Below are positions 38,092 to 59,665 of a DNA stretch of 64,000 nt, piece by piece. This stretch comes from a virus: the IMG/VR virus record IMGVR_UViG_3300005573_000054, positions 1 through 64,000 of that record; one strand, written 5' to 3'. Both the position numbers and the translations under genes were made by a program. The notes under the pieces were generated by a model. That model had not been told where the DNA came from. It did no database searches and worked only from the letters and a program-made list of their open reading frames with translations. Each line of letters starts with the position of its first letter. Positions within the stretch are counted from its first letter, which is position 1.

Positions 38092-38127
38092 GCCCCTCCC
38101 GAGCCGGACGGGAGGGGCACTTTTTTT
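38092..38127 (+). terminator. Intrinsic terminator
   Basis: GCCCCTCCCG...CGGGAGGGGC stem followed by T7. Confidence 0.85.
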
Positions 38128-38131
38128 AAAA

Positions 38132-38166
38132 ACCCTATAGAGTAGCGGGGGGATGCTCTATAGGGT
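38132..38166. promoter_or_regulatory. 11-bp inverted repeat at the start of the CAAG-rich operon
   Basis: ACCCTATAGAG-13 nt-CTCTATAGGGT. Confidence 0.5.
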
Positions 38167-38200: not shown

Positions 38201-39202
38201 ATGCTTATAGTAAAAGACTTGTTTCAAGTCCTCCAAGAAGTTCTCCAAGATGTAGACAAGCTTCTCATAAGTGGATCTCCAGGAATCGGCAAGTCAGAAA
38301 TTATCTATCAAGTGTGTAACAAGTTGAATCTCAAGGTATACGAAACAAGACTATATGAACAAGGGGAGTCGGCAGCAGGGCTCCCGAGAAGTCAAGACGG
38401 TATAACAAGATTTGACAAGCCATTCTGGCTAGATGAGCTGATCAAGGGTGGATATCAAGTTCTGTTTCTAGATGACTTCCATCTAGTCCCATCACAAGTA
38501 CAGCGTTTTCTTTACAAGCTCCTCACACACAAGGAACTTCACGATTACAAGGTACCCCAAGATCTCAAAGTGATTCTAGCAGGAAACTTCAAGATTGATT
38601 CTGCAGACTCAAGTGAAGTCCAGTCACCGATTATGTCAAGACTCCATCTAGCTATCGAATACGAGCCCGATCCAGAGGTATTCCTCAAGTTTGCAAGATC
38701 TCAACAAGACAGATTTGATTCAAGAGTCATTGCGTTTATTCAAGCAAATCCAGATTTGCTTTATACCAAGGAGCCTCCAACAAGTGAAATGTTCCCGTGT
38801 CCGAGGACATGGGAATACGCTTCAAGACTGCTGTCCAAGACTAATGATCCAAGGTTCCTTCTAGGTGTTGTAGGCACAAGAGCAGGATCAATCTTTCAAG
38901 AATTCTGGAATTTACTGAATCAAGATTTTAACACGATAGTCAAGACAGTGTCATATAAGTCAAGTATTAAAGATCAAGTTATAGCAAGCTTAATTTCTGC
39001 TCAAGAGTATTGTAAAGAACAAGATGTGTCAAGAAAGTCCAACATCTTCAAGTACGTTGAACAGTTCAAGGACGAGATCAAGTTCTTATTCGCAAGAAGG
39101 TGTTTTGAGGTCAAGGAGATGGAGTTCATACAAGAACTTAAAGTCAAGAGTCCAGATATATACAAGACTATCATAGAACTAGGTAAGGAGCTTACAAGAT
39201 GA
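38201..39202 (+). CDS. MoxR/dynein-related AAA+ ATPase (copy 2)
   Basis: SGSPGIGKS, LFLDDF, AGN, PIMSRL and FPCPRTWE. AAGGAGG precedes the ATG at 38201. Confidence 0.85.
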   Translation: MLIVKDLFQVLQEVLQDVDKLLISGSPGIGKSEIIYQVCNKLNLKVYETRLYEQGESAAGLPRSQDGITRFDKPFWLDELIKGGYQVLFLDDFHLVPSQVQRFLYKLLTHKELHDYKVPQDLKVILAGNFKIDSADSSEVQSPIMSRLHLAIEYEPDPEVFLKFARSQQDRFDSRVIAFIQANPDLLYTKEPPTSEMFPCPRTWEYASRLLSKTNDPRFLLGVVGTRAGSIFQEFWNLLNQDFNTIVKTVSYKSSIKDQVIASLISAQEYCKEQDVSRKSNIFKYVEQFKDEIKFLFARRCFEVKEMEFIQELKVKSPDIYKTIIELGKELTR

Positions 39203-40479
39203 ATACAAGTACGCTTAGTGAAGACAAGTTGATAAGTGTACTCAAGGTACAGGCATTCAAGTACACTTCAATGAATAGAATTCTAGAATATGAAATCAAG
39301 TTGGAAGATCTGAAACAAGTGGCCCCGCAAATTGCGGGGTATATTGACGACAAGCACAAGATTGTTATTGACAAGAGTTTAACAAGGGATGAACAAGTAG
39401 CAGTATTAATACACGAGGCATTACACGATGTTCTAGATCACATCAAGAGAGGTATGCGTCTAGAAGTATTCAACCAGCAACGAGATCAAGCTTTATGGAA
39501 TCTAGCGACAGACTACGTGATTAACAAGATAATATTAAGTTTAAACCTCAAGAAACATCCAGAAATACTTAAGAATGTGATACAAGTAGTTGACAAGTTT
39601 AGACCTGATCCAGAAAGCGATACAAGCGCAGAAGCCTTGTATAGGCTTCTCAAGAACAAGACCGAAGTCCAAGTGGAGAAACTAGAAGTTCAAATTCCAG
39701 GACAGAATCAAGGTCAAGGAGAACCAGATTCAATCGAGATTGTCAAGACAAGCGTAATTAACAAGGAAACAGGAGAAGTATTACAAGAGTCAGTACAAGT
39801 CCTCATCAGCAAGGAAGAAGCACAAGAGAGAAGCGAAAATCAACAAGAGGGAAAACAAGTGGATATCTTCAAGCTTCAAGAAAGTTTGAAACAAGCGGGG
39901 AACTCGTCTTCCCAGATGCTTCAAGAAATCACAGCAGCAAAATCAAGACTTAGTCTCAAGAATGAGTTGTCAAGTTATTTCGACAACCTCAAAACTCAAG
40001 GTCTTGATATAAGTTTCTTCGCAAGATCACCAAGAAGTACCGTTATCTCCTCAAGTTGTGGGTATAATGTTCCAGCATACGTCAATCCAAGGACGAAGAT
40101 TCTAGTTGCAATTGATTCAAGTGGATCAATAAGCAACAAGGAGTACTCGGAGTTTCTAGGGGTTTTAAGGAGAAACCTCAAGTACATTTATGGAAAACTA
40201 GTGTTATTCGACACAGAAGCTCAAGTTTATGATTTAGATTCAAGAGCAGTAGAAACACTAGAAAGAAAAGGGACTTTCAAGAGGGTTTTCTGTGGAGGCA
40301 CAAGTTTACGAGAGACCTTTAAGATTATTGAACAAGAGAAATTCAAACTAGCAATTATCATGACGGATCTAGAAGTTACTATTCCAGAGAAACCTAAGAA
40401 GCTTTCCAAGGTGTTGTGGATCGTCCCGTCGATTGACGGGACAAAGTTGCCAAGTTATGGAAAGGTTATTCAAGTGTAA
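39199..40479 (+). CDS. Zincin-like metallopeptidase + vWA protein (DUF2201-like), copy 2
   Basis: HEALH, WNLATDYVIN, SAEALY, DSSGSI, GGTSL, IMTDL and VLWIV..PSYGKV. Confidence 0.85.
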   Translation: MNTSTLSEDKLISVLKVQAFKYTSMNRILEYEIKLEDLKQVAPQIAGYIDDKHKIVIDKSLTRDEQVAVLIHEALHDVLDHIKRGMRLEVFNQQRDQALWNLATDYVINKIILSLNLKKHPEILKNVIQVVDKFRPDPESDTSAEALYRLLKNKTEVQVEKLEVQIPGQNQGQGEPDSIEIVKTSVINKETGEVLQESVQVLISKEEAQERSENQQEGKQVDIFKLQESLKQAGNSSSQMLQEITAAKSRLSLKNELSSYFDNLKTQGLDISFFARSPRSTVISSSCGYNVPAYVNPRTKILVAIDSSGSISNKEYSEFLGVLRRNLKYIYGKLVLFDTEAQVYDLDSRAVETLERKGTFKRVFCGGTSLRETFKIIEQEKFKLAIIMTDLEVTIPEKPKKLSKVLWIVPSIDGTKLPSYGKVIQV

Positions 40480-40506
40480 TAAGAAAATAAAGAAAGGAGG
40501 TAGGAA

Positions 40507-41748
40507 ATGAAAACGCCTACCTTCGAACAAGTAGTTGCTCAAGTACATGAAGGCAAGTTCTTTGAAGACAAGGAAATTCTTATGTTGAGAGACCAGTATG
40601 AAACAAGTATAGCTCACGAACAAGCTAGACAAGGTTGGACAACGAACGACAAGGAAATTCTCATGTTACAAGACAGAGTGGGGCGATCAGTCGCCCATAT
40701 TCAAGCAGAACGAGGTTGGACAACTGAAGACAAGGAAATTCTCGCGTTACAAGATGTAACAGGGCGAACAGTCGCCCACGAACAAGCTAGACAAGGTTGG
40801 ACAACCGAAGACAAGGAAATACTCGAGTTTGAAGATAATGGGAGACGAACAGTCGCCCATACTCAAGCAGAACGAGGTTGGATCACAGAAGACAAGAAGA
40901 TTCTCAAGCTTTACGACAGAAGTGGTACAAGTGTGGCTCACACTCAAGCTAGACAAGGATGGATTACTGAAGACAAGGAGATACTCGAGTTGAAAAACAC
41001 AAGCGGGTGGACAGTTGTCCACGAACAAGCAGAACAAGGGTGGACAACGGAAGACAAGGAGATGCTCAAGCTGAAGGATTACTATGGGCGATCAGTCGCC
41101 CATATTCAAGCTAAACGAGGGTGGACAACCGAAGACAAGGAAATACTCAAGTTGAAAGATAAGTATGGTACAAGTGTGGCTCATATTCAAGCAGAACGAG
41201 GCTGGATTATAGAAGACAAGGAAATACTCAAGTTAGAGAACAATCATGGTACAAGTGTGGCTCATATTCAAGCAGAACGAGGTTGGATAACAGAAGATCC
41301 AGAAATTCTCAAGCTTCACGATAAGAGTGGTACAAGTGTAGCTCATATTCAAGCAAAACAAGGATGGACTACTGAAGACAAGGAAATACTCAAGTTGAAA
41401 GATACAAGTGGGTGGAGTGTTGCCCACCAACAAGCAGATCAAGGATGGTCAACAGAAGACAAGGAAATCCTCAAGTTGGACAACGACCATGGTACAAGTG
41501 TAGCTCATATTCAAGCAGAACGAGGTTGGGTGTTTGAAGATCCAGAGATTCTAGTTTTGATCATTCGAGGCGGCTTGACGGTCGCCGAAGTTCAAGCACG
41601 TTATTCAGGTTGGACTCCAGGGGAAGAAGTCAAGGAAAAGTTCATACAAGAACTTCGGAAAAACTTTCCAGAAGAGAGAGTACAAGAAATACTTTACAAT
41701 GTTGATAATCTAGCGAAAGAATACTTCAAGAAAATCCTATCGAAATAG
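40507..41748 (+). CDS. Ankyrin-like repeat protein 1 (12 repeats + terminal repeat, type I C-cap)
   Basis: N-cap TFEQVVAQVxEGKFF, 27-aa repeats and a C-cap. Confidence 0.9.
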   Translation: MKTPTFEQVVAQVHEGKFFEDKEILMLRDQYETSIAHEQARQGWTTNDKEILMLQDRVGRSVAHIQAERGWTTEDKEILALQDVTGRTVAHEQARQGWTTEDKEILEFEDNGRRTVAHTQAERGWITEDKKILKLYDRSGTSVAHTQARQGWITEDKEILELKNTSGWTVVHEQAEQGWTTEDKEMLKLKDYYGRSVAHIQAKRGWTTEDKEILKLKDKYGTSVAHIQAERGWIIEDKEILKLENNHGTSVAHIQAERGWITEDPEILKLHDKSGTSVAHIQAKQGWTTEDKEILKLKDTSGWSVAHQQADQGWSTEDKEILKLDNDHGTSVAHIQAERGWVFEDPEILVLIIRGGLTVAEVQARYSGWTPGEEVKEKFIQELRKNFPEERVQEILYNVDNLAKEYFKKILSK

Positions 41749-41757
41749 GAGGTGAGA

Positions 41758-42273
41758 ATGAAAGTGTATACTTTCGAACAAGTAGTCGCTCAAGTGAATG
41801 AAGGCAAGTTCTTTGAAGATAAGGAAATCCTCAAGCTTTGCGACAAGAACGGGTGGACAGTCGCCCATGAACAAGCTTCTCAAGGCTGGACAACGGAAGA
41901 CAAGGAGATACTCAAGCTTTGTGATAAGAATGGTACAAGTGTGGCACATTTACAAGCGCTTCACAAGTGGACAACGAACGACAAGGAAATACTCAAGCTT
42001 TGTGACGAGTTCAAGGTGAGTGTTGCTCACGAACAAGCGTTTCGAGGATGGGTAACAGAAGATCCAGAAATTCTAGCTTTAGCTACCACAAGTAACTTCC
42101 TAGTAGCGAAAATTCAAGCATACTATTCGGGTTGGACTCCAGAAGGAGAAACTAGAGAAAAGTTTGTACAAGAACTTCAAAAGAATTTCCCAGTGGAGAA
42201 AGTACAAGAAATACTTTACGATATTGATGGTCTAGCAAAAGAGTATTTCAAGAAAATCTTATTCGGGAGGTAG
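41758..42273 (+). CDS. Ankyrin-like repeat protein 2 (3 repeats, type I C-cap)
   Basis: Same architecture. AGGAGGTG precedes the ATG at 41758. Confidence 0.9.
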   Translation: MKVYTFEQVVAQVNEGKFFEDKEILKLCDKNGWTVAHEQASQGWTTEDKEILKLCDKNGTSVAHLQALHKWTTNDKEILKLCDEFKVSVAHEQAFRGWVTEDPEILALATTSNFLVAKIQAYYSGWTPEGETREKFVQELQKNFPVEKVQEILYDIDGLAKEYFKKILFGR

Positions 42274-42276
42274 GAG

Positions 42277-43593
42277 ATGGAGATGTGTACTTTTAAGCAA
42301 GCAATTACTCAAGTAAATGAGGGTAAGTTCTTTGAAGACCCAGAAATCCTCAAGTTATATAATGTCTTCGGGCGGACAATCGCCCATGAACAAGCTTCTC
42401 AAGGCTGGATAACGGAAGACAAGGAGATACTCAAGTTAAAGGATGATCATGGTACAAGTGTAGCTCACGTTCAAGCAGAACATGGATGGACAACGGAAGA
42501 CAAGGAGATACTCAAGCTTCAAAATAACAGTGGGCTGACTGTTGCCCACAAACAAGCAGAACAAGGATGGACAACTGAAGATCCAGAGATTCTTAAGTTG
42601 TCCGACTGGTCAAGCTGGAGTGTTGCTCACACTCAAGCTAGACAAGGATGGACCACTGAAGACAAGGAGATACTCAAGTTACATAATATGTATGGGTGGG
42701 CGGTTGCCCACGAACAAGCTAAACAAGGTTGGATAACAGAAGACAAGGAAATTCTCAAGCTTCGCGACAAGAGTGGCACAAGCGTAGCTCATACACAAGC
42801 ATCTCGAGGATGGACTACAGAAGACAAGGAAATACTCATGTTACAAGACAGAATGGGGCGAACAGTCGCCCACGTTCAAGCAGATCAAGGTTGGACTACG
42901 GAAGACAAGGAAATTCTCAAGCTTCGCGACAAGAGTGGCACAAGCGTAGCTCATGTACAAGCATCTCGAGGATGGACAACGGAAGACAAGGAAATTCTCA
43001 TGTTGAAAGATAAGCATAATACAAGTGTAGCACATCTACAAGCAGAACGAGGATGGTCAACTGAAGACAAGGAGATACTCAAGTTAGAAGACGATCATGG
43101 TACAAGTGTTGCGTATAAACAAGCTAGACAAGGATGGATCACGAATGACGAGGAAATTCTCAAGCTTTGCGATGGGGGTGGCTGGTCCATCGCCCATAGA
43201 CAAGCTTCTCAAGGCTGGATAACTAATAACAAGGAGATACTCAAGTTGAAAGATAGATATGGTACAAGTGTAGCGCATTTACAAGCAGAACGAGGTTGGA
43301 CAACAGATGACAAGGAAATACTCAAGCTTCAAAATAACAGTGGGCTGACTGTTGCCCACAAACAAGCAGAACAAGGATGGACAACTGAAGATCCAGAGAT
43401 TCTTCTCCTCACGGAAAAACTAGGAGTCACTGTAGCCGAAGTTCAAGCAAGCTATTCAGGTTGGATATTAAGCGAAGACATTCAAGAAAAACTACGCCAA
43501 GAACCTTATAAGCTTAGTAAAGAGAAGCTTAACAAGTTAATATCATCAGTTAACGAAGCTTCAAGGCGATTCTTCAAGAATGCTCTAAAATAA
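42277..43593 (+). CDS. Ankyrin-like repeat protein 3 (13 repeats, type II C-cap)
   Basis: Same architecture as the rest of the array. Confidence 0.9.
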   Translation: MEMCTFKQAITQVNEGKFFEDPEILKLYNVFGRTIAHEQASQGWITEDKEILKLKDDHGTSVAHVQAEHGWTTEDKEILKLQNNSGLTVAHKQAEQGWTTEDPEILKLSDWSSWSVAHTQARQGWTTEDKEILKLHNMYGWAVAHEQAKQGWITEDKEILKLRDKSGTSVAHTQASRGWTTEDKEILMLQDRMGRTVAHVQADQGWTTEDKEILKLRDKSGTSVAHVQASRGWTTEDKEILMLKDKHNTSVAHLQAERGWSTEDKEILKLEDDHGTSVAYKQARQGWITNDEEILKLCDGGGWSIAHRQASQGWITNNKEILKLKDRYGTSVAHLQAERGWTTDDKEILKLQNNSGLTVAHKQAEQGWTTEDPEILLLTEKLGVTVAEVQASYSGWILSEDIQEKLRQEPYKLSKEKLNKLISSVNEASRRFFKNALK

Positions 43594-43607
43594 AAGGAGG
43601 TGGGAAA

Positions 43608-44366
43608 ATGGGAGTATGTGTCACTTTCGAACAAGTAGTCGCTCAAGTGAATGAAGGCAAGTTCTTCGAAGACCCAGAAATCCTCAAGCTTTATAACGAG
43701 AACGGGTGGAGTGTTGCCCATGAACAAGCGGATCAAGGATGGATAACGGAAGACAAGGAAATACTCAAATTAAAAAACAAGTATAACATAAGTGTAGCTT
43801 ATGTTCAAGCGTTCCGAGGATGGACAACAGAGGATCCAGAAATACTCAAGATTCAGGACAAGAACGGGTGGACTATCGCCCACGAACAAGCGGTTCGAGG
43901 ATGGACAACTGAAGACAAGGAAATACTTATGTTAAAAGATAAGTTTGGAACAAGTGTTGCCCATGAACAAGCGAAACAAGATTGGGTAACTGAAGACAAG
44001 GAAATACTTATGTTAAAAGACCAACACGGAACAAGTGTTGCTTATATTCAAGCTAGACGAGGATGGACAACTGAAGACAAGGAAATACTTAAACTAGAAG
44101 ACGATCAAGGTGTAACTGTAGCTCATGTTCAAGCAGAGCAAGGTTGGACGACAGAAGATCCAGAGATTCTAGTCTTGGCCACTTATGATGGCGTAACAGT
44201 GGCCGAAGTTCAAGCAGAACATTCAGGATGGGAGCTAGAAGGAGAGACCAGGGAAAGGTTTATTCAAGAGCTTCAAAAGAACTTTTCAAAGAGAAAAGCG
44301 CAAGAAGTACTTCACAATGTTGACAAGATGAGGAAAAAGTACTTCAAGGAAGCTCTGTTGGAATAA
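43608..44366 (+). CDS. Ankyrin-like repeat protein 4 (6 repeats, type I C-cap)
   Basis: Same architecture as the rest of the array. Confidence 0.9.
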   Translation: MGVCVTFEQVVAQVNEGKFFEDPEILKLYNENGWSVAHEQADQGWITEDKEILKLKNKYNISVAYVQAFRGWTTEDPEILKIQDKNGWTIAHEQAVRGWTTEDKEILMLKDKFGTSVAHEQAKQDWVTEDKEILMLKDQHGTSVAYIQARRGWTTEDKEILKLEDDQGVTVAHVQAEQGWTTEDPEILVLATYDGVTVAEVQAEHSGWELEGETRERFIQELQKNFSKRKAQEVLHNVDKMRKKYFKEALLE

Positions 44367-44370
44367 TAAG

Positions 44371-44460
44371 ATGAGACGAGACAATGTTCCAATATACAAT
44401 CAAGTAGTCACTCAAGTAAACAAGAAACACACAAGAGAAGATTTAATCTCAAGCCCTTAA
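44371..44460 (+). pseudogene. N-cap-only remnant of an array gene
   Basis: MRRDNVPIYNQVVTQVNKKHTREDLISSP* resembles MNRNDTLMYKQVIAQVNKGK of 48674. Confidence 0.6.
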
Positions 44461-44484
44461 TTTTTCTGTTAAGAGGTAGAGAAC

Positions 44485-44919
44485 ATGAAAGCGTGTCTTT
44501 TTGAACAAGTAGTTGCTCAAGTAAATGAAGGTAAGTTTTTTGAAGACAAAGAGATACTCAAGCTTCACGACGAGGACGGACGAACAGTTGCCCACGTTCA
44601 AGCAGAACAAGGTTGGATTACAGAAGACAAGGAAATACTCAAGTTGAAAGATATAAGCGGGTGGACAGTTGCCCACCAACAAGTGGTTCGAAGATGGATA
44701 ACAGAAGACCCAGAGATTCTAGTTTTGGCTACCATAAGAAACATCCTAGTGGCAGAAGTTCAAGCATGTTATTCAGGTTGGACCCCAGAAGAGGAAACCA
44801 GGGAAAAGTTCGTGCAAGAACTTCGGAAGAATTTTCCAGAGGAGAAAGCACAAGAGATACTTCACAATGTTGATAGTCTAGCAAAAGAGTATTTCAAGAA
44901 AATCTTATTCGGGAGGTAG
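44485..44919 (+). CDS. Ankyrin-like repeat protein 5 (2 repeats, type I C-cap)
   Basis: Same architecture as the rest of the array. Confidence 0.9.
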   Translation: MKACLFEQVVAQVNEGKFFEDKEILKLHDEDGRTVAHVQAEQGWITEDKEILKLKDISGWTVAHQQVVRRWITEDPEILVLATIRNILVAEVQACYSGWTPEEETREKFVQELRKNFPEEKAQEILHNVDSLAKEYFKKILFGR

Positions 44920-44922
44920 GAG

Positions 44923-45678
44923 ATGGAGATGTGTACTTTTAAGCAAGCAATTACTCAAGTAAATGAGGGTAAGTTCTTTGAAGATAAAGAGATACTCAAG
45001 CTTTGCAACGGGAACGGGTGGAGTGTTGCCCATGAACAAGCATTTCGAGGATGGACAACAGAAGACAAGGAAATCCTCATGTTGTATGATGATACTGGGT
45101 GGACTGTCGCCCATGAACAAGCTTCTCAAGGTTGGACAACAGAGGATCCAGAAATTCTCAAGTTTTGCGATGATGTTGGACAGACTGTCGCCCACGTTCA
45201 AGCATCTCGAGGATGGACAACCGAAGACAAGGAAATACTCAAGCTTCAAAATGACAGTGGGTGGACAGTCGCCCATGAACAAGCAAGCAGAAGATGGACA
45301 ACGAACGACGAGGAAATCCTCAAGTTAAAAGACAACCACGAGTGGACTGTTGCCCATATTCAAGCTAGACGAGGATGGATAACTGAAAACAAGGAAATAC
45401 TCAAGTTGAAAGACGATCGTGGTACAAGTGTAGCTTATGTTCAAGCATCTCAAGGATGGATAACAGAAGATCCAGAAATTCTAGTCTTGGCCACTCACGA
45501 TGACATAACAGTAGCCGAGGTTCAAGCTAAATACTCAGGATGGGAACCAGAAGGGGAAGTCAAGGAAAAGTTTGTGCAAGAACTCCAGAAAAACTTTTCA
45601 AAGAAGAAGATACAAGAAATACTTCAGGATATCAACGAGTTGAGGAAAAAGTATTTCGAGAGAATCTTATTAGTGTAA
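44923..45678 (+). CDS. Ankyrin-like repeat protein 6 (6 repeats, type I C-cap)
   Basis: Same architecture. N-cap identical to that of 42277. Confidence 0.9.
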   Translation: MEMCTFKQAITQVNEGKFFEDKEILKLCNGNGWSVAHEQAFRGWTTEDKEILMLYDDTGWTVAHEQASQGWTTEDPEILKFCDDVGQTVAHVQASRGWTTEDKEILKLQNDSGWTVAHEQASRRWTTNDEEILKLKDNHEWTVAHIQARRGWITENKEILKLKDDRGTSVAYVQASQGWITEDPEILVLATHDDITVAEVQAKYSGWEPEGEVKEKFVQELQKNFSKKKIQEILQDINELRKKYFERILLV

Positions 45679-45817
45679 CGAGATAAATCAAGATAAACAA
45701 ACAAGAAATATCAAAGAAAGAACCATTATAATTGTTTAATAAGTTTTTTCGTGTTGAAGTTACAAGAAAATTTTTCCAAAAATATCTCAAAAAATCTTAT
45801 AGACGGGAGGTGAGGAA

Positions 45818-46810
45818 ATGGAAGCGTATACTTTTGAACAAGCAATCACTCAAGTGAATGAAGGTAAGTTTTTCGAAGACAAGGAGATACTTAAACTTCA
45901 CGATGAGAATGGGTGGACTGTTGCCCATGAACAAGCTAAACGAGGGTGGACAACTGAAGATAAGGAGATCCTCAAGCTTCACGATAAATCATGGCGAAGT
46001 GTAGCCCATGAACAAGCGAAACGAGGATGGACAACAAATAACAAGGAGATACTCATGTTACGTGACACTTTCAGATGGTCTGTTGCTCATATTCAAGCAG
46101 AACATGGGTGGACAACTGAAAATAGAGAGATTCTCAAGTTGTTCGACTGGTCCAACTGGACTGTCGCCCATGAACAAGCAAGACGAGGGTGGACAACTGA
46201 AGACAAGGAAATTCTTAGACTTTATAGCGACTATGGATATACTGTAGCTTATATCCAAGCAAAACATGGATGGATAACAAATGACAAAGAAATACTCAAA
46301 TCGAAAGATAAGTATGATACAAGTGTAGCGCATCTACAAGCAAAACATGGCTGGACCACCGAAGATAAGGAGATACTCAAGCTTTATGATAAGAATAAGT
46401 GGTCTGTTGCTCATGAACAGGCAAGACAAGGATGGACTACTGAAGATAAGGAAATCCTCAAGTTAGAAGACAATTGTGGTACAAGTGTCGCTCATATTCA
46501 GGCAGAACAAGGATGGACAACTAAAGATAAGGAGATACTCAAGTTGCATGATGTCTGTGGGTGGACAGTCGCCCATGAACAAGCTAAACGTGGTTGGATA
46601 ACTGAAGATCCAGAGATTCTTCTTTTCGCAGAAAGACTGGGAGTCACTGTTGCAGAAATTCAGGTAGAATATTCAGGCTGGACACTAAGCGAAGACATCC
46701 AAGAAAAACTACGGCAAGAACCTTACAGACTCAGTGAAGAGGAGTTTAACAAGTTAATGTCGTCAATCAACGAAGCTTCAAGACGGTTCTTCAAGAATAC
46801 TCTAAGATAG
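45818..46810 (+). CDS. Ankyrin-like repeat protein 7 (9 repeats, type II C-cap)
   Basis: Same architecture as the rest of the array. Confidence 0.9.
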   Translation: MEAYTFEQAITQVNEGKFFEDKEILKLHDENGWTVAHEQAKRGWTTEDKEILKLHDKSWRSVAHEQAKRGWTTNNKEILMLRDTFRWSVAHIQAEHGWTTENREILKLFDWSNWTVAHEQARRGWTTEDKEILRLYSDYGYTVAYIQAKHGWITNDKEILKSKDKYDTSVAHLQAKHGWTTEDKEILKLYDKNKWSVAHEQARQGWTTEDKEILKLEDNCGTSVAHIQAEQGWTTKDKEILKLHDVCGWTVAHEQAKRGWITEDPEILLFAERLGVTVAEIQVEYSGWTLSEDIQEKLRQEPYRLSEEEFNKLMSSINEASRRFFKNTLR

Positions 46811-46824
46811 AAGGAGGCGGGAAA

Positions 46825-47817
46825 ATGGAAGCGTATACTTTCGAACAAGCAATCACTCAAGTGAATGAAGGCAAGTTCTTCGAAGATAAGGAGATACTCA
46901 AACTTCACAATAAGAATGGGTGGACTGTAGCCCATGAACAAGCGGAGCATGGTTGGACAACTGAAGACAAGGAGATACTTAGACTTTGCGACAAGAATGG
47001 GTGGACTGTGGCCCATGAGCAAGCTAGACGAGGGTGGACTACTGAAGACAAAGAGATACTCAAGTTGAGAGATCAGTACGGAGTAAGTGTCGCTCATATT
47101 CAAGCAGAACGAGGATGGACAACCGAAGACAAGGAGATACTCATGTTACGTAATATTTATGGGTGGACTGTTGCCCATGAGCAAGCTAGACAAGGGTGGA
47201 CAACTGAAGACCCAGAGATTCTTTTTCTCGTAGATAGACTAGAAATCACTGTAGCTGAAATACAAGCAAAACATGGATGGATGACAAATGATAAAGAAAT
47301 ACTCAAATTGAAAGATATGTACGGCACAAGTGTAGCACATTTTCAAGCAGAACATGGTTGGACTACAGAAGACAAGGAGATACTCAAGCTTTGTGATAAG
47401 AATAACTGGTTTGTTGCTCACGAACAAGCGAAACGAGGATGGACGACTGAAGACAAAGAGATACTCAAGTTAGATGACGATCAAGGTGTAAGTGTCGCTC
47501 ATATTCAAGCAGAACGAGGATGGACAACTGAAGACAAAGAGATACTCATGTTGCGTAATATCTATGGGTGGACTGTTGCCCATGAACAAGCTAGACAAGG
47601 GTGGACAACTGAAGATCCAGAGATTCTAGTCTTAGCCACTCGTGATAACTTAATGGTAGCCGAAGTTCAAGCAAGCTATTCAGGCTGGACACTAAGCGAA
47701 GACATTCAAGAAAAACTGCGACAAGAACCTTATAGACTTAGTGAAGAGGAGCTTAACAAGTTAATGTCGTCAATCAACGAAGCTTTAAGACGGTTCTTTA
47801 AGAATGTTCTAAGATAA
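46825..47817 (+). CDS. Ankyrin-like repeat protein 8 (9 repeats, type II C-cap)
   Basis: Same architecture, with an internal terminal-type repeat. Confidence 0.9.
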   Translation: MEAYTFEQAITQVNEGKFFEDKEILKLHNKNGWTVAHEQAEHGWTTEDKEILRLCDKNGWTVAHEQARRGWTTEDKEILKLRDQYGVSVAHIQAERGWTTEDKEILMLRNIYGWTVAHEQARQGWTTEDPEILFLVDRLEITVAEIQAKHGWMTNDKEILKLKDMYGTSVAHFQAEHGWTTEDKEILKLCDKNNWFVAHEQAKRGWTTEDKEILKLDDDQGVSVAHIQAERGWTTEDKEILMLRNIYGWTVAHEQARQGWTTEDPEILVLATRDNLMVAEVQASYSGWTLSEDIQEKLRQEPYRLSEEELNKLMSSINEALRRFFKNVLR

Positions 47818-47831
47818 AAGGAGGTGAGAAA

Positions 47832-48677
47832 ATGGAAACATATACTTTTGAACAAGCGATTGCCCAAGTGGATAAAGGTAAGTTTTTCGAAGACAAGGAG
47901 ATACTTAAACTTCACGACGAAAACGGGTGGACTGTTGCCCATAAACAAGCTAAGTATGGTTGGACAACTGAAAACAAGGAGATACTCAAGTTAAAGGATA
48001 ACCGTGGTATAAGTGTAGCCCATGAACAAGCTAAACGAGGGCGGACAACAGAAGACCCAGAGATTCTTAAGTTGTCCGACTGGTCCAGATGGACTGTTGC
48101 TCATATTCAAACAGAACATGGGTGGACAACTGAAGACAAGGAAATACTCAAGTTAAACGACAAATGGGAACGGGCTGTGGCCTACATTCAAGCTAGATAT
48201 GGATGGACTACAGAAGACAAGGAAATACTCAAGTTAAGAGACAACCATGGGCGGTCTGTTGCCCACGAACAAGCGGAGCTAGGATGGACAACGGAAGACA
48301 AGGAAATTCTCAAACTTTGTAACAAGAGCGGTACAAGCGTAGCACATTTACAAGCGGAACAAGGATGGACTACAGAAGACCCAGAAATCCTCAAGCTTTG
48401 CAATAAGTACGGTGTAAGTGTAGCTCATGAACAAGCTAAACGTGGTTGGATAACTGAAGATCCAGAGATCCTAGTTTTAGCCGCCACAGGAAACTTCCTA
48501 GTAGCAGAAGTTCAAGCAGAGTATTCAGGTTGGAAACCAGCGGAGGAAGTCGAGGAAAAGTTCGTGCGAGAACTTCAGAAGAATTTTCCAGAGGAGAAAG
48601 TACAAGAAATACTTCATAATATTGATGATCTAGCAAAAAATATTTCGAGAAAATCTTGTTTGGGAGGTAGGAGATGA
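47832..48677 (+). CDS. Ankyrin-like repeat protein 9 (7 repeats, type I C-cap with frameshifted tail)
   Basis: Same architecture. Ends LAKNISRKSCLGGRR instead of LAKxYFxKILFGR. Confidence 0.88.
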   Translation: METYTFEQAIAQVDKGKFFEDKEILKLHDENGWTVAHKQAKYGWTTENKEILKLKDNRGISVAHEQAKRGRTTEDPEILKLSDWSRWTVAHIQTEHGWTTEDKEILKLNDKWERAVAYIQARYGWTTEDKEILKLRDNHGRSVAHEQAELGWTTEDKEILKLCNKSGTSVAHLQAEQGWTTEDPEILKLCNKYGVSVAHEQAKRGWITEDPEILVLAATGNFLVAEVQAEYSGWKPAEEVEEKFVRELQKNFPEEKVQEILHNIDDLAKNISRKSCLGGRR

Positions 48678-49834
48678 ATCGAAACGACACTCTAATGTAT
48701 AAACAAGTAATTGCTCAAGTAAATAAGGGTAAGCTCTTCGAAGACAAGGAGATACTCAAGCTTTGTGATAAGTACGGTACAAGTGTAGCTCACGTTCAGA
48801 CAGAACGAGGGTGGACAACCGAAGATAAGGAAATTCTTACACTTCATAAAAAGTCTGGATGGACTGTTGCCCATCAACAGGCAGAACGTGGATGGACAAC
48901 AAATAACAAGGAGATACTCAAGCTTTGCAACAAAAGCGGTATAAGTGTAGCTCACGTTCAAGCTAAACATGGGTGGACAACTGAAGACAAGGAAATACTC
49001 AAGCTTCATGATGACTTTGGGCGGACTGTAGCTCATGAACAAGCTAAACAAGGATGGACCACTGAAGACAAAGAAATACTCGAACTTTGTGATGTCACTG
49101 GATGGACTGTAGCTCATGAACAAGCTAAACAAGGATGGACTACTGAAGACAAAGAAATACTCGAACTTTGTGATGATTCTGTATGGACTGTAGCTCATGA
49201 ACAAGCTAAACAAGGATGGACTACTGAAGACAAGGAAATACTCGAACTTTGTAATGACGATGGATGGTTTGTTGCCCATGAACAAGCTAAACATGGGTGG
49301 ACAACTGAAGACAAGGAAATACTCAAGCTTCATGATGACTCTGGATGGACTGTAGCTCATGAACAAGCTAAACAAGGATGGACTACTGAAGACAAGGAGA
49401 TACTTAAACTATGTAACAACCCTGGATGGACTGTAGCTCATGAACAAGCTAAACAAGGATGGACTACTGAAGACAAGGAGATACTCAAGTTAAGAAACCA
49501 GTATGATCGGACTGTTGCTCATGAACAAGCTTCTCACGGATGGACGATAGAAAACAAGAAAATACTTAAGTTGAAAGATAAACATGGTACAAGTGTAGCA
49601 CATTTACAGGCAGAGCAAGGATGGACAACAGAAGATCCAGAAATCCTTTTACTCACAGATAAATCAGGGACTACCGTCGCAGAAATTCAAGCAAGGCGTT
49701 CAGGTTGGTTACCAAGTGAAGACACTCAAGAAAAGATACGGCAAGAGCTCTGTAAATCTGCGGTAAGGAGGTTCAACAGTTTAATAACAGCTGCTTCGAA
49801 AAAGTTTTTCCAACAGACTCTGAAAGGAGAGTAA
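48674..49834 (+). CDS. Ankyrin-like repeat protein 10 (11 repeats, type II C-cap)
   Basis: Same architecture, with a run of near-identical recent repeats at ~49020-49480. Confidence 0.9.
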   Translation: MNRNDTLMYKQVIAQVNKGKLFEDKEILKLCDKYGTSVAHVQTERGWTTEDKEILTLHKKSGWTVAHQQAERGWTTNNKEILKLCNKSGISVAHVQAKHGWTTEDKEILKLHDDFGRTVAHEQAKQGWTTEDKEILELCDVTGWTVAHEQAKQGWTTEDKEILELCDDSVWTVAHEQAKQGWTTEDKEILELCNDDGWFVAHEQAKHGWTTEDKEILKLHDDSGWTVAHEQAKQGWTTEDKEILKLCNNPGWTVAHEQAKQGWTTEDKEILKLRNQYDRTVAHEQASHGWTIENKKILKLKDKHGTSVAHLQAEQGWTTEDPEILLLTDKSGTTVAEIQARRSGWLPSEDTQEKIRQELCKSAVRRFNSLITAASKKFFQQTLKGE

Positions 49835-49867
49835 TATAGAAACCACAACCTAAATGAGGTAAAGAAA

Positions 49868-50461
49868 ATGAAAGTATTTACTTTTAAGCAAGCGGTTGCC
49901 CAAGTAACTAAAGGTAAGTTCTTTGAAGATAAAAAAATCCTCAAGCTTCACGACAAGAACGGGTGGACTGTTGCCCATGAACAAGCGAAGCGAGGATGGA
50001 CCACCGAAGACAAGGAAATACTCAAGCTTTGTGATAAGTACGGAGTGAGTGTAGCCTATGAACAAGCGAGACATGGCTGGACCACTGAAGACAAGGAAAT
50101 TCTCAAGCTTTGCAACAAAAGCGGTACAAGTGTAGCTCATATACAAGCGAGATATGGCTGGACTACTGAAGATAAGGAGATACTCAAGCTTCGTAATAAG
50201 TACGGTACAAGTGTAGCACACGAACAAGCGTACCGAGGATGGGTAACAGAAGACCCTGAGATTCTAGTTTTAACTACCATAAGTAACTTCCTAGTAGCAA
50301 AAGTTCAAGCATGTTATTCAGGTTGGACTCCTGAAGGGGAAACCAGAGAAAAGTTCGTACAAGAACTCCAAAAGAATTTCCCAGTGGAGAAAGTACAAGA
50401 AATACTTTACGATATTGATGATCTAGCAAAAAAGTATTTCAAGAAAATTTTGTTAGAATAG
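49868..50461 (+). CDS. Ankyrin-like repeat protein 11 (4 repeats, type I C-cap)
   Basis: C-cap nearly identical to that of 41758. Confidence 0.9.
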   Translation: MKVFTFKQAVAQVTKGKFFEDKKILKLHDKNGWTVAHEQAKRGWTTEDKEILKLCDKYGVSVAYEQARHGWTTEDKEILKLCNKSGTSVAHIQARYGWTTEDKEILKLRNKYGTSVAHEQAYRGWVTEDPEILVLTTISNFLVAKVQACYSGWTPEGETREKFVQELQKNFPVEKVQEILYDIDDLAKKYFKKILLE

Positions 50462-50472
50462 GAGGTGAGAAA

Positions 50473-51384
50473 GTGGAGTCGTATACTTTTGAACAAGCGT
50501 TTATTCAAGTACTTAGTGGCAAATTTTTCCAGGACAAAGAAATACTTAAATTATATAACGAAGATGGACGGACTATTGCTCATGAACAAGTAAGACAAGG
50601 ATGGAGAACAGAAGATAAAGAGATACTCAATTTATATGACAAAGATAGATGGACTGTTGCCCATCAACAGGCAGAACGTGGATGGACAACAAATAACAAG
50701 GAGATACTCAAGCTTTGTGATAAGTACGGTACAAGTGTAGCTCACGTTCAAGCAGAACACAGATGGACTACTGAAGACAAGGAAATACTCAGGCTTTGCA
50801 ACGACTCTGGACGAACAGTCGCTCATATTCAAGCATCTCATGGATGGACTACAGAAGACCTAGAAATCCTCAAGCTTTGTGGTAATCTTGAATGGACTGT
50901 CGCTCATGAACAAGCAAAACAAGGATGGACAACAGAAGATCCAGAAATCCTCAAGCTTTGCGACAAGAACGGGTGGACTGTGGCTCATGAACAAGCACGC
51001 CAAGGATGGACTACTGAAGACAAGGAGATACTCAAACTTCGCGACAAGACCGGGTGGACTGTTGCTCACGAACAAGCAGATCGAGGTTGGACAACAGATG
51101 ACAAGGAGATACTCAAGTTATGTAATATCTTTGGTCGGTTTATCGCTCATGTACAAGCGCTTCGAGGATGGACCACAGAGGATCCAGAGATTCTAGTCTT
51201 GGCCGCTTTTAACAACTTAACAGTAGCAGAAGTTCAAGCAGAACATTCAGGATGGGAACCGGAAGGAGAAGTCAAGGAAAAGTTCGTACAAGAACTTCAG
51301 GAGAACTTTCCTAAGGAAATAGTACAAGAAATACTCTGTAACATTGATAAGTTGAGGAAAAAGTATTTCAAGAGAATCTTATAA
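50473..51384 (+). CDS. Ankyrin-like repeat protein 12 (8 repeats, type I C-cap)
   Basis: Same architecture. GTG start after AGGAGGTG. Confidence 0.9.
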   Translation: MESYTFEQAFIQVLSGKFFQDKEILKLYNEDGRTIAHEQVRQGWRTEDKEILNLYDKDRWTVAHQQAERGWTTNNKEILKLCDKYGTSVAHVQAEHRWTTEDKEILRLCNDSGRTVAHIQASHGWTTEDLEILKLCGNLEWTVAHEQAKQGWTTEDPEILKLCDKNGWTVAHEQARQGWTTEDKEILKLRDKTGWTVAHEQADRGWTTDDKEILKLCNIFGRFIAHVQALRGWTTEDPEILVLAAFNNLTVAEVQAEHSGWEPEGEVKEKFVQELQENFPKEIVQEILCNIDKLRKKYFKRIL

Positions 51385-51399
51385 ACGGGAGGTGAGAAA

Positions 51400-51588
51400 A
51401 TGGAAACATATATTTTTAAGGAAGTAATCATTCAGGCAAAACGCTCAGGATGGATGTTGAATGAAGATATTCAAGAAAAACTACAACAAGAACCTTGTAA
51501 ATTTAACGAAGAAAGATATAATAAATTAGTATTATCAACTAATAAAGCTTCAAGACAATTCTTCCAAAATATCCTAAAAAAAGAGTAA
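51400..51588 (+). CDS. Repeat-less array member (N-cap fused directly to type II C-cap)
   Basis: METYIFKEVIIQA|KRSGWMLNEDIQEKLQQEP..., with an intact SD. Confidence 0.7.
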   Translation: METYIFKEVIIQAKRSGWMLNEDIQEKLQQEPCKFNEERYNKLVLSTNKASRQFFQNILKKE

Positions 51589-51593
51589 CAAAA

Positions 51594-52472
51594 ATGAATA
51601 TAAGAAACTATAATCTAAGCGACGAAGAAATTCTAGAATTACCTATTGAGAAACAACGTCTAGTTGCGTATGCCCAAGTTCAACGTGGGTGGACCACAGA
51701 AAACAAAACAATCCTCCAACTCTCTTTATACTGGGGACGAACAATAGCTCATGAACAAGCCAGACAAGGATGGACAACAGAAGATAAAGAAATACTTACA
51801 ACAGTAGATATTTTTGGAGAATATGTAGCTCATATTCAAGCGCAGAATGGCTGGGTTACGGAAGATCCAGAGATTCTTAAACTTGCTAACAAAGAAAAAC
51901 AAACAGTTGCTCATATTCAAGCAGAACAAGGATGGACAACAAATAACAAGGAAATTCTCAAACTTTGTAACTCTAGAAAATGGACTGTTGCCCATATTCA
52001 AGCTAGACGAGGATGGACAACTGAAGACATAGAAATCCTCAAGTTAACTAACAAGCTTGGTCAGTCCGTCGCTTTTTTCCAGGCAATGAATGGATGGACT
52101 ACAGAGAATCTAGAAATACTCAAACTTCACGATAAAAATGGGTGGACTGTTGCCCATGAACAAGCTAGACGTGGATGGACTACAGAAAATTTCAAGATTC
52201 TTAAACTAGCTGACAAAAATGGATGGACTGTTGCTCATGAACAAGCTAAGCGTGGATGGATTACAAGAGATTTAAGAGTTCTTACTATCAAAGATATGAG
52301 AAACAATACAGTAGCTGAAATACAAGCAAAACACTCTGGATGGACTCCTGATGATGAACTCGAGAAGAAGTTACTTCAAAAGCTTCGAAAACGTTCTGTA
52401 GAAGAAGCATCAAGAGTGTTGAAATCAATAAACGATTTATCTCTAGAGTTTTTTAGAAACGCCTTTAGATAG
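51594..52472 (+). CDS. Ankyrin-like repeat protein 13 (divergent caps)
   Basis: About 8 repeats with the same consensus. Confidence 0.88.
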   Translation: MNIRNYNLSDEEILELPIEKQRLVAYAQVQRGWTTENKTILQLSLYWGRTIAHEQARQGWTTEDKEILTTVDIFGEYVAHIQAQNGWVTEDPEILKLANKEKQTVAHIQAEQGWTTNNKEILKLCNSRKWTVAHIQARRGWTTEDIEILKLTNKLGQSVAFFQAMNGWTTENLEILKLHDKNGWTVAHEQARRGWTTENFKILKLADKNGWTVAHEQAKRGWITRDLRVLTIKDMRNNTVAEIQAKHSGWTPDDELEKKLLQKLRKRSVEEASRVLKSINDLSLEFFRNAFR

Positions 52473-52486
52473 TAAGGAGGTATAAA

Positions 52487-53335
52487 ATGGATGAAGATCG
52501 GTCTCAAATTCAAATTATGGAAAAGAAGTATCCTAAAAAGAAACTTCTAGAAATTGTTGATGAGACTCTGAAGAAAACTCTTGCACATGAGTTAGCCATC
52601 CAAGGAATGATTACAACTTCAAGAAAGATTTTACTTACCGCTGATAGAAATGGGAGAACTGTTGCCCATTATCAAGCTCTCTCTGGATATGTAGTTACAG
52701 AATCAGATATTTTAAAACTTGCTGATCTATGTGGAACGACGGTTGCACATCTACAGGCAAGTAAGGGATGGACTACAAAATCAAAAAAGATCTTAAAACT
52801 AGCTGATATAGATGGATGGTCAGTAGCTCATGAAATAGCTAGCAAAGGACACTTTTTTCCAGAAACTCAAAAGGAAGTTTTAAAAATCAGCGATATAAGC
52901 GGGTGGACTGTTGCCCATGAACAGGCAAGTAGAGGATGGATAACAAACGACAAGGAAATCCTCAGTCTTTCTACTCTTAGGGGATGGACTGTTGCTCATG
53001 AACAAGCAAAACATAAATGGACCACAGAAGATCCAGAGATACTAATGTTGAGAGATAAAGAGAAGTGGTCTGTGGCACATGAGCAAGCGTATCAAGGATG
53101 GACTACAAATGATATTAATATCCTTAAAATACGTGATGCTCTTGGAGTGTGTGTGTCTATGGTTCAGATCGAAGTTTCTGGGTGGATTTATCCTTCCAGT
53201 TTGGAAGAAAAGTTTTCCCGAGATTGTTTGTCTCTTATGAAGAAGATTTACACCAAAAAGGGTATTAATATGTTCCCGGAGGAGGAAAAAGATGGAAAGG
53301 AAGTTAAAACCAAGACAAGTAGTTTGCTCTTGTAA
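52487..53335 (+). CDS. Ankyrin-like repeat protein 14 (most divergent)
   Basis: D..GWTVAHEQA..GW repeats, more degenerate than the others. Confidence 0.88.
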   Translation: MDEDRSQIQIMEKKYPKKKLLEIVDETLKKTLAHELAIQGMITTSRKILLTADRNGRTVAHYQALSGYVVTESDILKLADLCGTTVAHLQASKGWTTKSKKILKLADIDGWSVAHEIASKGHFFPETQKEVLKISDISGWTVAHEQASRGWITNDKEILSLSTLRGWTVAHEQAKHKWTTEDPEILMLRDKEKWSVAHEQAYQGWTTNDINILKIRDALGVCVSMVQIEVSGWIYPSSLEEKFSRDCLSLMKKIYTKKGINMFPEEEKDGKEVKTKTSSLLL

Positions 53336-54235: not shown

Positions 54236-54604
54236 ATGGACAAATATAGAATATGGGACAAACATGAAAAGAGATGGCTTGTAAGAAATGCTACAATCTG
54301 GGACCTAGTTACTTTATTCCAAAATAACCCAGTGTTTACAGAACCTACTGAGTCGCTTAAGAAACGTCTAGTCTTTCAGAGGTCCACGAGAATCACAGAC
54401 TTGAAAAGAAGAGAAATCTTCGAAGGTGACATAATCAAAGATATGAGAGGTCAGAGGTGTGTGATCGTCTATGAATCAAGTATTGATCAAGCAGGTTTTG
54501 TAGCAGAGGAGATCTCGAAAAACACCGAGAAAACCAAACAGTGGTACTGGATGGGTCTGGTTATCGGAAACGTCTTTGAGAACGAGGAACTGCTCAAGCC
54601 GTGA
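54236..54604 (+). CDS. YopX-family protein
   Basis: KYRIWDK, QRSTRITDLKRREIFEGDII and VIGNVFENEELL. Confidence 0.85.
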   Translation: MDKYRIWDKHEKRWLVRNATIWDLVTLFQNNPVFTEPTESLKKRLVFQRSTRITDLKRREIFEGDIIKDMRGQRCVIVYESSIDQAGFVAEEISKNTEKTKQWYWMGLVIGNVFENEELLKP

Positions 54605-54622
54605 TGTGTATCATCTCCAGCA

Positions 54623-55172
54623 AGTGACTCACCACATAAAAAACGATACCGCAAAACTCCGCAGACGGTCTAGCGAGTTCTGAGATCACGTGGGCTATAT
54701 ATTTACATAGCGACGACAAAAAATGAATTTTTCACCCAAGACTTAAAACTCAACATTTAAAAACGACACCACTTCAGAAAGAGATTCTCGAGTAACTCGA
54801 GTTGCACTCCAGACACTTAAAACAAGTCAACCTCAAGACAACTCAAACCGTATACCAAAACACCAGTGACTCACCACATAAAAAACGATACCGCAAAACT
54901 CCGCAGACGGTCTAGCGAGTTCTGAGATCACGTGGGCTATATATTTACATAGCGACGACAAAAAATGAATTTTTTTACCTAAGCATCAACGTAGTTGTCC
55001 TGATATTCTGAGATTACAAGGGTAATATTCTCTCAAAGATGAGTCGAGAAGCAACAGAGGAACAAGAAGATCCAGTGATTCACCACATAAAAAACGATAC
55101 CGCAAAACTCCGCAGACGGTCTAGCGAGTTCTGAGATCACGTGGGCTATGTATTTACATAGCGACGACAAAA
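54623..55172. repeat. Three ~100-110 bp direct repeats (54623-54732, 54865-54974, 55074-55172)
   Basis: AGTGACTCACCACATAAAAAACGATACCGCAAAACTCCGCAGACGGTCTAGCGAGTTCTGAGATCACGTGGGCTAT...GACAAAA. The core recurs near 57273 and 58103. Confidence 0.95.
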
Positions 55173-55307
55173 GAAGTTACAAATTTCCCATATAGGTCTA
55201 ACACAGACTCGATAGAACCCCAAGTCTACCATCACTGTATTTAATATACTATCCATATATTTATTTAGAAGAGTGATATATATCCGCGGGGAGAAAGCCC
55301 TCCTTTA

Positions 55308-58777: not shown

Positions 58778-59665
58778 TTGATGAACGTTGAAGTAAAGTT
58801 TAGAAGGGAAAATCCAGTTTTTCGAGCTAGTTACAAGAGTAATAATCAAGGAAAGAAACGCTTGACTATACAAGAGATTCTATCAAGGATCCAAAAACAG
58901 GAATTCTTTGAAGACGAAGAGTATCTGAAGGTAAGATTCAAAGGAAAAGGTGGATGGACTGTCGCTCATGAACAAGCTAGACGGCATTGGAAACCTGAAA
59001 ATTCTCTTCCAAAACACATTCTTGAAATGAGAACACAGTCTGGATGGACAGTGGCTCATCAGATGGCTCGAGCAGGACTTTTTACAAACGACAAGGAAGT
59101 TCTTCTACTTCGTGATAAAAGCAATAATACAGTTGCTCATGTACAAGCTGGTCGTGGGTGGATTACAGAAGATCCAGAGATTCTCAGACTTGCTGATAAG
59201 AGTGGATGGACTGTTGCCCATGAGCAAGTAGAACAAGGATGGATAACAGAAAACAAGGAGGTACTCAAGTTACGTGATAAGTATGGATGGACCGTCGCCC
59301 ATAGACAAGCAAGGTATGGGTGGACGACAAATGACAAAGAGATACTCAGATTATATAACGAGGATGGATGGACTGTCGCTCATGAACAAGTTAGACGGGG
59401 ATGGATAACTGAAGACAAGGAGGTGCTCATGTTGCGTGATATCTATGGTTGGACTGTAGCTCATGAACAAGCAAAATTTGGATGGGTAACTGGAGATAAA
59501 GAAATTCTTAGACTGTCTGATAATACCGGATGGACTGTTGCTCACGTCCAGGCGGAGTCTGGGTGGATGACAGATGACTCTGAGATACTAAATCTTTCCG
59601 ACAAGGACGGAACTACTGTCTCTGAAGTTATAGATAGATTTGTCGCAAAGACGCTATCGTTTTGA
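58778..59665 (+). CDS. Outlying ankyrin-like repeat protein (same 27-aa repeat)
   Basis: DKxGWTVAHEQxxxGWIT repeats with different caps. Confidence 0.88.
   Translation: MMNVEVKFRRENPVFRASYKSNNQGKKRLTIQEILSRIQKQEFFEDEEYLKVRFKGKGGWTVAHEQARRHWKPENSLPKHILEMRTQSGWTVAHQMARAGLFTNDKEVLLLRDKSNNTVAHVQAGRGWITEDPEILRLADKSGWTVAHEQVEQGWITENKEVLKLRDKYGWTVAHRQARYGWTTNDKEILRLYNEDGWTVAHEQVRRGWITEDKEVLMLRDIYGWTVAHEQAKFGWVTGDKEILRLSDNTGWTVAHVQAESGWMTDDSEILNLSDKDGTTVSEVIDRFVAKTLSF

Follow-up and report, generated by a model that had tools for sequence, protein, structure and literature searches.

Predicted 27-residue ankyrin-type repeat proteins form an array beside a gp24/gp25-type ATPase/peptidase pair in an uncultured phage

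Introduction

When a virus encodes an AAA+ ATPase and a vWA-containing peptidase and follows them on the same strand with 14 genes for variable repeat proteins, do these parts form one machine, or do two separate things stand side by side? This question is posed by positions 38201 to 53335 of IMG/VR virus record IMGVR_UViG_3300005573_000054, which we analyzed within the first 64 kb (64,000 nucleotides, here called the window) of the 159,483-bp record (37.7% GC; record judged ~50% complete). The source is a large uncultured hot-spring phage, and its nearest relatives were found in a series of Joint Genome Institute (JGI) metagenomes. An initial annotation of the locus had proposed that the repeat proteins are interchangeable specificity subunits that deliver host proteins to the ATPase and peptidase, docking through a conserved C-terminal cap (C-cap). 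We find that the array is a virus-encoded ankyrin-type multigene family of a new variety and that this family is independent of the ATPase/peptidase pair in most lineages. Comparative genomics gave no support to a three-part machine, for which there is a weak hint in one structure prediction.

Results and discussion

The array proteins resemble ankyrins with a shortened unit

The array genes, R1 to R14, encode 3 to 14 units per protein and ~118 units in all. Whereas the canonical ankyrin unit spans 33 amino acids, the period first read for these proteins as well, the spacing that we measured was strictly 27 amino acids (81 bp) in 13 of the 15 family proteins of the window. The exceptions are a single 29-residue interval in R14 and a single 30-residue interval in R15, an orphan member encoded downstream of the array. 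An AlphaFold2 (AF2) model of R11 (predicted local distance difference test score [pLDDT], 97) predicts units in which a helix of 7 residues is connected by a loop to one of 4 residues, followed by a hairpin-like turn, with the protein closed by a two-helix C-cap. When this model was compared with the PDB using Foldseek, the top matches were all ankyrins or designed ankyrin repeat proteins (DARPins), with E values of ~1e-4 and template modeling (TM) scores of 0.45 to 0.5; the best structural matches, such as gankyrin (3aji) and a DARPin (6moj), have the same type of solenoid fold. The TM scores are modest because the unit of the window proteins is shorter than that of ankyrin, from which it differs by the loss of 6 residues and by a second helix of only ~4 residues. 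The ESM Atlas neighbors, whether retrieved by features or by structure, were ankyrin clusters that included a viral one (best score, 0.95).

At the sequence level, the repeat proteins of the window had no match to the Pfam Ank models at E values of up to 10. A profile search recovered 941 cluster representatives of the 27-amino-acid family, and 15 of 61 long, distant members of this family matched Pfam Ank_4 or Ank_2. As modeled, the repeat proteins are a shortened branch of the ankyrin superfamily. This branch is apparently undescribed: the literature yielded no description of a 27-amino-acid repeat family or of the pair-plus-array arrangement. No match to R11 was obtained by tblastn against cultured phages, and IMG/VR scans with single proteins (R11 or the vWA-peptidase) returned nothing.

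The array proteins carry a (T/S)VAH motif where canonical ankyrins have TPLH. Their variation is concentrated at eight positions per unit (positions 4, 7, 8, 19, 21, 23, 24, and 26), the remainder being almost fixed, and these positions, which lie in the first helix and in the hairpin loop, are the sites that are randomized in DARPins. Synonymous diversity between units is saturated (pS, ~0.7), whereas the ratio of nonsynonymous to synonymous diversity (pN/pS) is ~0.02 to 0.1 in the framework and ~0.5 to 1.5 at the variable positions. Because synonymous sites are saturated while framework pN/pS is so low, the array genes are, by this sequence measure, old and functional rather than recent junk. 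Sister phage L003 is 82% identical to the window in DNA over the ATPase and vWA-peptidase genes and at most 72% identical over the array, where gene sizes differ, one-to-one orthology is lost, and L003 has frameshifted copies. A diversity-generating retroelement was rejected as the origin of the variability, given that no RVT_1 domain was found in the 159-kb record, itself about half complete (control genomes were positive).

The initial annotation identified the parts correctly: an AAA+ ATPase, a vWA protein fused to an HExxH peptidase domain, and repeat proteins of ankyrin type whose surfaces vary while their caps are conserved. It also held that the repeat proteins contain no signal peptide or catalytic domain, which agrees with the lack of a hydrophobic N terminus in the translations (read by eye) and of any genuine Pfam or NCBIfam family. 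The many minor Pfam matches of these proteins, Ig_NUP210 and zf-C3HC among them, were rejected as artefacts inflated by the repeats. The CAAG signature reported for the locus is genuinely enriched (505 copies versus ~84 expected, or six-fold) but is not a separate signal. We rejected it as a regulatory code, since it is a by-product of the codons of the 81-bp unit (GAC-AAG, CTC-AAG, CAA-GCA, and CAA-GGA).

Poxvirus ANK/PRANC families, which serve as the model for a "variable binder plus constant docking handle," resemble the array in being virus multigene families that combine variable ankyrin-type repeats with a conserved short helical C-terminal domain. The array differs from them in its 27- rather than 33-residue unit and in lacking any PRANC or F-box match in Pfam, and bacterial hosts are not known to have an SCF ligase. 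The two-helix tail that forms the array C-cap is specific to the lineage of the window phage.

The ATPase and vWA-peptidase form a known phage module

The first gene of the block (38201..39202, + strand) encodes a MoxR-like AAA+ ATPase of the N4 gp24/phrog_1297 family, with the Walker A motif GSPGIGKSE and the Walker B motif LFLDD. Its start is most likely at 38201 because AGGAGG lies 5 nt upstream and because the homolog in L015, the nearest nonsister relative of the pair, aligns from that methionine. Against Pfam, the ATPase scored 23.8 bits for AAA_5 (cutoff, 22) and 26 for AAA and did not match AAA_3, to which the homolog in contig L017 has a weak match. It matched phrog_1297 at 1.9e-43 and was detected in 702 phage records, mostly N4-like.

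The second gene (39199..40479, + strand) overlaps the ATPase gene by 4 nt at the stop codon of the latter. It encodes an N4 gp25-like protein of phrog_1314, a fusion of a zincin-like metallopeptidase (DUF2201_N; HEALH) with a vWA domain (DUF2201; metal ion-dependent adhesion site [MIDAS] DSSGS), and both domains exceeded their Pfam cutoffs (43.8 bits for DUF2201_N and 50.3 bits for DUF2201). The HExxH and MIDAS residues H72, E73, H76, D306, S308, S310, T368, and D390 were invariant in the alignment. An AF2 model of the vWA-peptidase built from 6 sequences reached a pLDDT of 54, too low for a fold search. When the ATPase and the vWA-peptidase were each searched by sequence against solved structures, neither gave a match, and an NCBIfam scan produced nothing meaningful.

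The pair is a known core phage module of the N4 gp24/gp25 type. In an N4-like roseophage, the same two genes are annotated as gp24-like and gp25-like, follow RNAP2, and have no repeat neighbors; gp24 and gp25 are core genes of N4-like phages whose function is unknown (PMC4193335). MoxR/vWA pairs have been described as chaperone/cochaperone systems. Iyer et al. (2021) described a pair consisting of a MoxR AAA+ ATPase and a vWA protein with an N-terminal metallopeptidase in group 2.2 jumbo phages, for which they proposed a role in virion assembly and processing (PMC7824862). Both the N4 and the jumbo phage pairs resemble that of the window in family (phrog_1297 and phrog_1314; DUF2201_N and DUF2201), gene order, tight coupling, and location downstream of phage RNA polymerase genes. 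Unlike the window, they have no repeat array behind the pair, and the DD of Walker B, in place of DE, sets the window ATPase apart from these counterparts. A further parallel is offered by MoxR-vWA ternary conflict systems (bpMoxR, PF20030), which likewise combine an AAA+ MoxR-like ATPase, a vWA protein, and a repeat protein as the third part. The window differs from these systems in that its bpMoxR match reached 16.2 bits against a cutoff of 27, in that it has no beta-propeller, and in that it contains a phage module rather than a host defense locus.

The pair and the array probably share a transcription unit

All 16 genes, from the ATPase through R14, lie on the + strand between 38201 and 53335, with the repeat genes at 40507 to 53335. 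Their intergenic distances are, in order, -4, 27, 3, 3, 14, 118, 3, 139, 14, 14, -4, 33, 11, 209, and 14 nt, and a GGAGG-type ribosome-binding site precedes nearly every gene, so the initial annotation's picture of a codirectional block with mostly short gaps or overlaps was confirmed in coordinates and strand. A strong intrinsic terminator (38092..38118, + strand), with a GC stem of 10 bp ahead of a T run, ends the upstream unit, and the ATPase gene therefore starts a new transcription unit. Beyond 38118, a terminator scan of the + strand identified a single weak hairpin (44022) before 55308, which bears out the earlier statement that no obvious terminator interrupts the block; the next clear terminator-like site on this strand is at ~55.3 kb. 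Pair and array are a probable single phage transcription unit.

Between this terminator and the start of the ATPase gene, the leader contains a 10-bp inverted repeat (38133-38165; CCCTATAGAG ... CTCTATAGGG), whose loop includes a G-run and an upstream ATG. A promoter-like motif upstream of the ATPase gene had no second copy elsewhere in the window.

The repeat family and the pair usually occur apart

Sister phages, whose vWA-peptidase is 83% identical to that of the window, keep the ATPase, the vWA-peptidase, and the array together, and only in these phages were all three parts found together. Among 80 related IMG/VR DUF2201 loci, 69 contained the ATPase. None of the 80 had an array of the window's kind, as judged by a periodicity screen that sees only well-conserved repeats and would let divergent solenoids near vWA genes escape; strongly periodic open reading frames (ORFs) numbered 2 within 4 kb versus 3 farther away in equal lengths of DNA. 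One relative (L020) shares the backbone of RNA polymerase, FolE, ATPase, and vWA-peptidase genes and has no repeats after the last of these. Since the genes downstream of the vWA-peptidase gene differ in every lineage (an M16 peptidase, ThyX, a dCMP deaminase, or a nuclease), this position fits a variable hot spot. A megablast search of positions 30 to 40.5 kb against phage records gave no match.

The family also occurs without the pair. On pDF308, the megaplasmid of Deferribacter desulfuricans SSM1, we found seven family genes in one tandem cluster and family matches at no fewer than 39 places, and neither the ATPase nor DUF2201 was detected anywhere on the plasmid (control genomes were positive). 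The hypothetical proteins encoded there (DEFDS_P111, P112, P139, P147, P154, P155, and P201) belong to the same 27-amino-acid family, share its N-terminal cap (N-cap; GHFFEDK..ILKL), and are 36 to 60% identical to the window proteins; they are tandemly clustered like the array, and their C-terminal regions are longer and different. The DUF4116 label that UniRef gives to one of them was not reproduced in a Pfam search. A 199-kb phage contig (L055) carries four family genes with neither the vWA-peptidase nor the ATPase within 10 kb, and at least 10 further lineages (including L008 to L014) contain the family without the pair. Looking for linkage of the three components in other genomes thus returned the family without the pair and the pair without arrays, and in relatives the array is largely independent of MoxR-vWA.

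Where the family is represented by singletons, these lie beside RtcB and other RNA repair genes or on archaeal plasmid-like contigs. In AT-rich, phage-like contigs L008 to L010 (10001-11930), the single family member overlaps the start of the RtcB RNA ligase gene by 8 nt, and genes for Ro60/TROVE and a CCA-adding enzyme are close by. On pDF308, RtcB lies ~13 kb from the repeat cluster.

Stand-alone binders or parts of a machine?

The reading that we favor, although we judge the chances that it is right or wrong to be about equal, is that the array encodes a family of binders that act on their own and diversify rapidly, in an accessory island beside the pair. Two separate things would then lie side by side, a core gp24/gp25-type module and an accessory island of cytoplasmic mini-ankyrin proteins, their adjacency reflecting the variable hot spot just behind the vWA-peptidase gene. 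Each paralog would be a stand-alone stoichiometric binder with ~eight variable positions per repeat on a framework held by strong purifying selection, and unequal recombination, both among the 81-bp units and from gene to gene, would shift the numbers of repeats and genes. The resulting changing panel of binders may block, sequester, or relocate various host proteins, most plausibly defense or other takeover targets.

Several points weigh against this reading. That the array proteins bind host proteins is something we infer from fold and variation alone, and the periodicity screen has the blind spot described above. In L040, L048, and L145, a family member lies 0.2 to 2.2 kb downstream of a distant vWA-peptidase gene (~30% identity); the L040 and L048 contigs begin inside this gene, so that only it and the family repeat gene are visible there. 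In L015, a different, 26-amino-acid repeat protein follows the pair. These two or three recurrences of a repeat gene behind a vWA gene are more than pure chance would lead one to expect.

The remaining point comes from a three-chain complex prediction of the ATPase, the vWA-peptidase, and R5, which scored 0.57, compared with 0.15 for the best control, and fell to 0.15 once the vWA chain was replaced. Contacts agreed between runs to at least 94%, and the pLDDT of the partner was at least 85. In the calibration, the mark was passed by 58 of the 80 solved complexes and by 2 of the 110 mismatched pairs, but among scores of 0.60 or under, the passes comprised only 7 of those 80 solved complexes together with both mismatches; our job also used shallow alignments of its own and three chains, unlike the calibration. 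Ankyrin-type proteins are common among solved complexes, so this weak pass may be a memory of ankyrin likeness. The prediction lends weak support to contact, raising its odds modestly, and is not evidence of binding; direct contact of array proteins with the vWA-peptidase is possible.

The L015 repeats (2492-3683) are rich in tryptophan (WWDP..F.W...WALA.YC) and are followed by another repetitive protein, and neither protein matches Pfam. A relationship of the 26-amino-acid repeat protein to the array was rejected, as hhalign against the array profile showed none. No longer contigs of the L048 and L015 lineages were found.

Are the array proteins instead adaptors that attach to the vWA-peptidase or the ATPase and hand over the different host proteins that they bind, to be unfolded at the expense of ATP and cleaved, in a three-part system of targeted proteolysis? 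The tightly spaced, codirectional block without a clear internal terminator would suit this arrangement, as would the invariant HExxH and MIDAS residues, the predicted contact that is lost upon vWA replacement, the adjacency of a vWA gene and the repeat family in the distant L040/L048/L145 lineage, and the other repeat protein behind the pair in L015. We nevertheless consider it doubtful, given that most family members, tandem arrays included, occur without the pair, that the pair belongs to the core gene set of N4-like and other array-free phages (PMC4193335), that the frequency of ankyrins in solved complexes could account for the weak pass, and that the Walker B motif of the ATPase is DD rather than DE. 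The putative docking C-cap is moreover lineage specific and absent from R15 and from the L040/L048 repeat proteins (those of L040, L048, and L145 have neither a canonical N-cap nor a C-cap), which makes docking through it, as initially proposed, unlikely as a general rule. What survives of the proposed delivery to an unfoldase/peptidase is the weak complex score and the repeat genes of L040/L048 and L015; the coupling itself is not established, and the parts are usually apart. That a gp24/gp25-type machine uses the mini-ankyrin paralogs as interchangeable receptors for its substrates, in a programmable ATP-driven degradation of host proteins, we regard as unlikely.

The same predicted contact (0.57 versus 0.15) could also mean that array proteins touch the pair as clients to be folded, assembled, or processed, or as inhibitors or regulators, rather than as substrate adaptors, which would agree with the chaperone descriptions of MoxR/vWA pairs and with the virion assembly and processing proposal of Iyer et al. 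(PMC7824862). Since family members elsewhere manage without the pair, a dedicated chaperone would hardly be needed by a small idealized solenoid modeled at a pLDDT of 97, and no conserved cleavage motif turned up (no search was aimed at one), this alternative appears improbable. Least probable is functionless expansion, the array being a tandem amplification, selfish or in decay, that serves no present purpose. A mini-gene without repeats, the shifted C terminus of R9, and the frameshifted copies of the sister phage might be taken as signs of decay, but the framework is under strong purifying selection despite saturated synonymous sites, the 14 reading frames are intact and preceded by GGAGG sites, and the family is kept in ~940 cluster representatives.

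If stand-alone binding is the right reading, large phages and megaplasmids keep a changing gene panel of 27-residue binders, and the array resembles a natural, heat-adapted counterpart of designed ankyrin binders with a shorter unit. It would offer a way into the question of how thermophiles are taken over or disarmed by their phages and possibly a new compact binder scaffold. Contact with the vWA-peptidase, if true, would point to a role for the widespread gp24/gp25 module, and the receptor reading, if true, would give it its first function. The usual separation of pair and array guards against claiming a three-part system from adjacency alone.

Individual members of the array

All array genes are on the + strand, and their C-caps fall into at least two classes. 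Class A C-caps are found in R1 (40507..41748; 413 amino acids, 13 repeat anchors), R2 (41752..42273; 173 amino acids, 4 anchors), R4 (43608..44366; 252 amino acids, 7 anchors), R5 (44485..44919; 144 amino acids, 3 anchors), the partner chain of the complex prediction, R6 (44923..45678; 251 amino acids, 7 anchors), R9 (47832..48677; 281 amino acids, 8 anchors), R11 (49868..50461; 197 amino acids, 5 anchors), the protein modeled by AF2, and R12 (50473..51384; 303 amino acids, 9 anchors). Class B C-caps are found in R3 (42277..43593; 438 amino acids, 14 anchors), R7 (45818..46810; 330 amino acids, 10 anchors), and R8 (46825..47817; 330 amino acids, 10 anchors), the last of which contains an internal 405-bp duplication of 5 units. 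The C-cap is divergent in R10 (48674..49834; 386 amino acids, 12 anchors), as are both the N- and C-caps in R13 (51594..52472; 292 amino acids, 9 anchors). R14 (52487..53335; 282 amino acids, ~7 anchors) diverges most from the other members and ends in a C-tail of its own. The orphan R15 (58778..59665, + strand; 295 amino acids, 8 anchors) lies 5.4 kb downstream of the array and has no C-cap.

Traces of turnover are visible at several of these genes. Because the units of R10 are the most alike of the array (81% at the DNA level), they suggest a recent unit expansion. The last ~12 codons of R9 are apparently shifted in frame: its C terminus (48630-48677) reads ..LAKNISRKSCLGGRR where relatives have ..LAKEYFKKILFGR, which suggests a 1-nt frameshift near the 3' end. 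The three larger intergenic gaps (118, 139, and 209 nt) are not empty. The 209-nt gap holds a mini-gene (51400..51588, + strand; 62 amino acids) with its own GGAGG site, in which a class B C-cap follows the N-cap immediately, with zero repeats between them; recombination seems to have gone to its limit here and deleted all units. A second gap holds a short gene junction remnant and the third a possible N-cap remnant recognized by eye, for which BLAST gave no confirmation. Long minus-strand ORFs antisense to the array (44905-45282, 46723-47103, 48692-49375, and 49850-50227) are most likely not genes and arise from the stop-free reverse frame of the 81-bp unit.

Genomic setting

Upstream of the ATPase gene are split multisubunit RNA polymerase genes and a GTP cyclohydrolase gene, and downstream of the array are a radical-SAM (QueE-like) gene and QueC. 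The GTP cyclohydrolase I gene (36501-37166) and the genes for the radical-SAM QueE-like protein and QueC (61469-62158 and 62250-63689) thereby flank the accessory island, and together they suggest a 7-deazaguanine DNA modification pathway. Just upstream of R15 is a paralogous gene pair (57378-57938 and 58227-58757) whose products have lipoprotein-like signal peptides (..GVASFSC AIEP..). Between the array and these genes, few genes are present at 54600 to 57300, a region that contains a 71-bp tandem repeat (55411-55722; 4.4 copies, 97% matches), a 15-bp repeat in ~24 copies (56151-56525), and three copies of a minus-strand hairpin, CTGCGGAGTTTTGCGG (at 54664, 54906, and 55115). Replication may originate in this gene-poor region, or the region may be regulatory.

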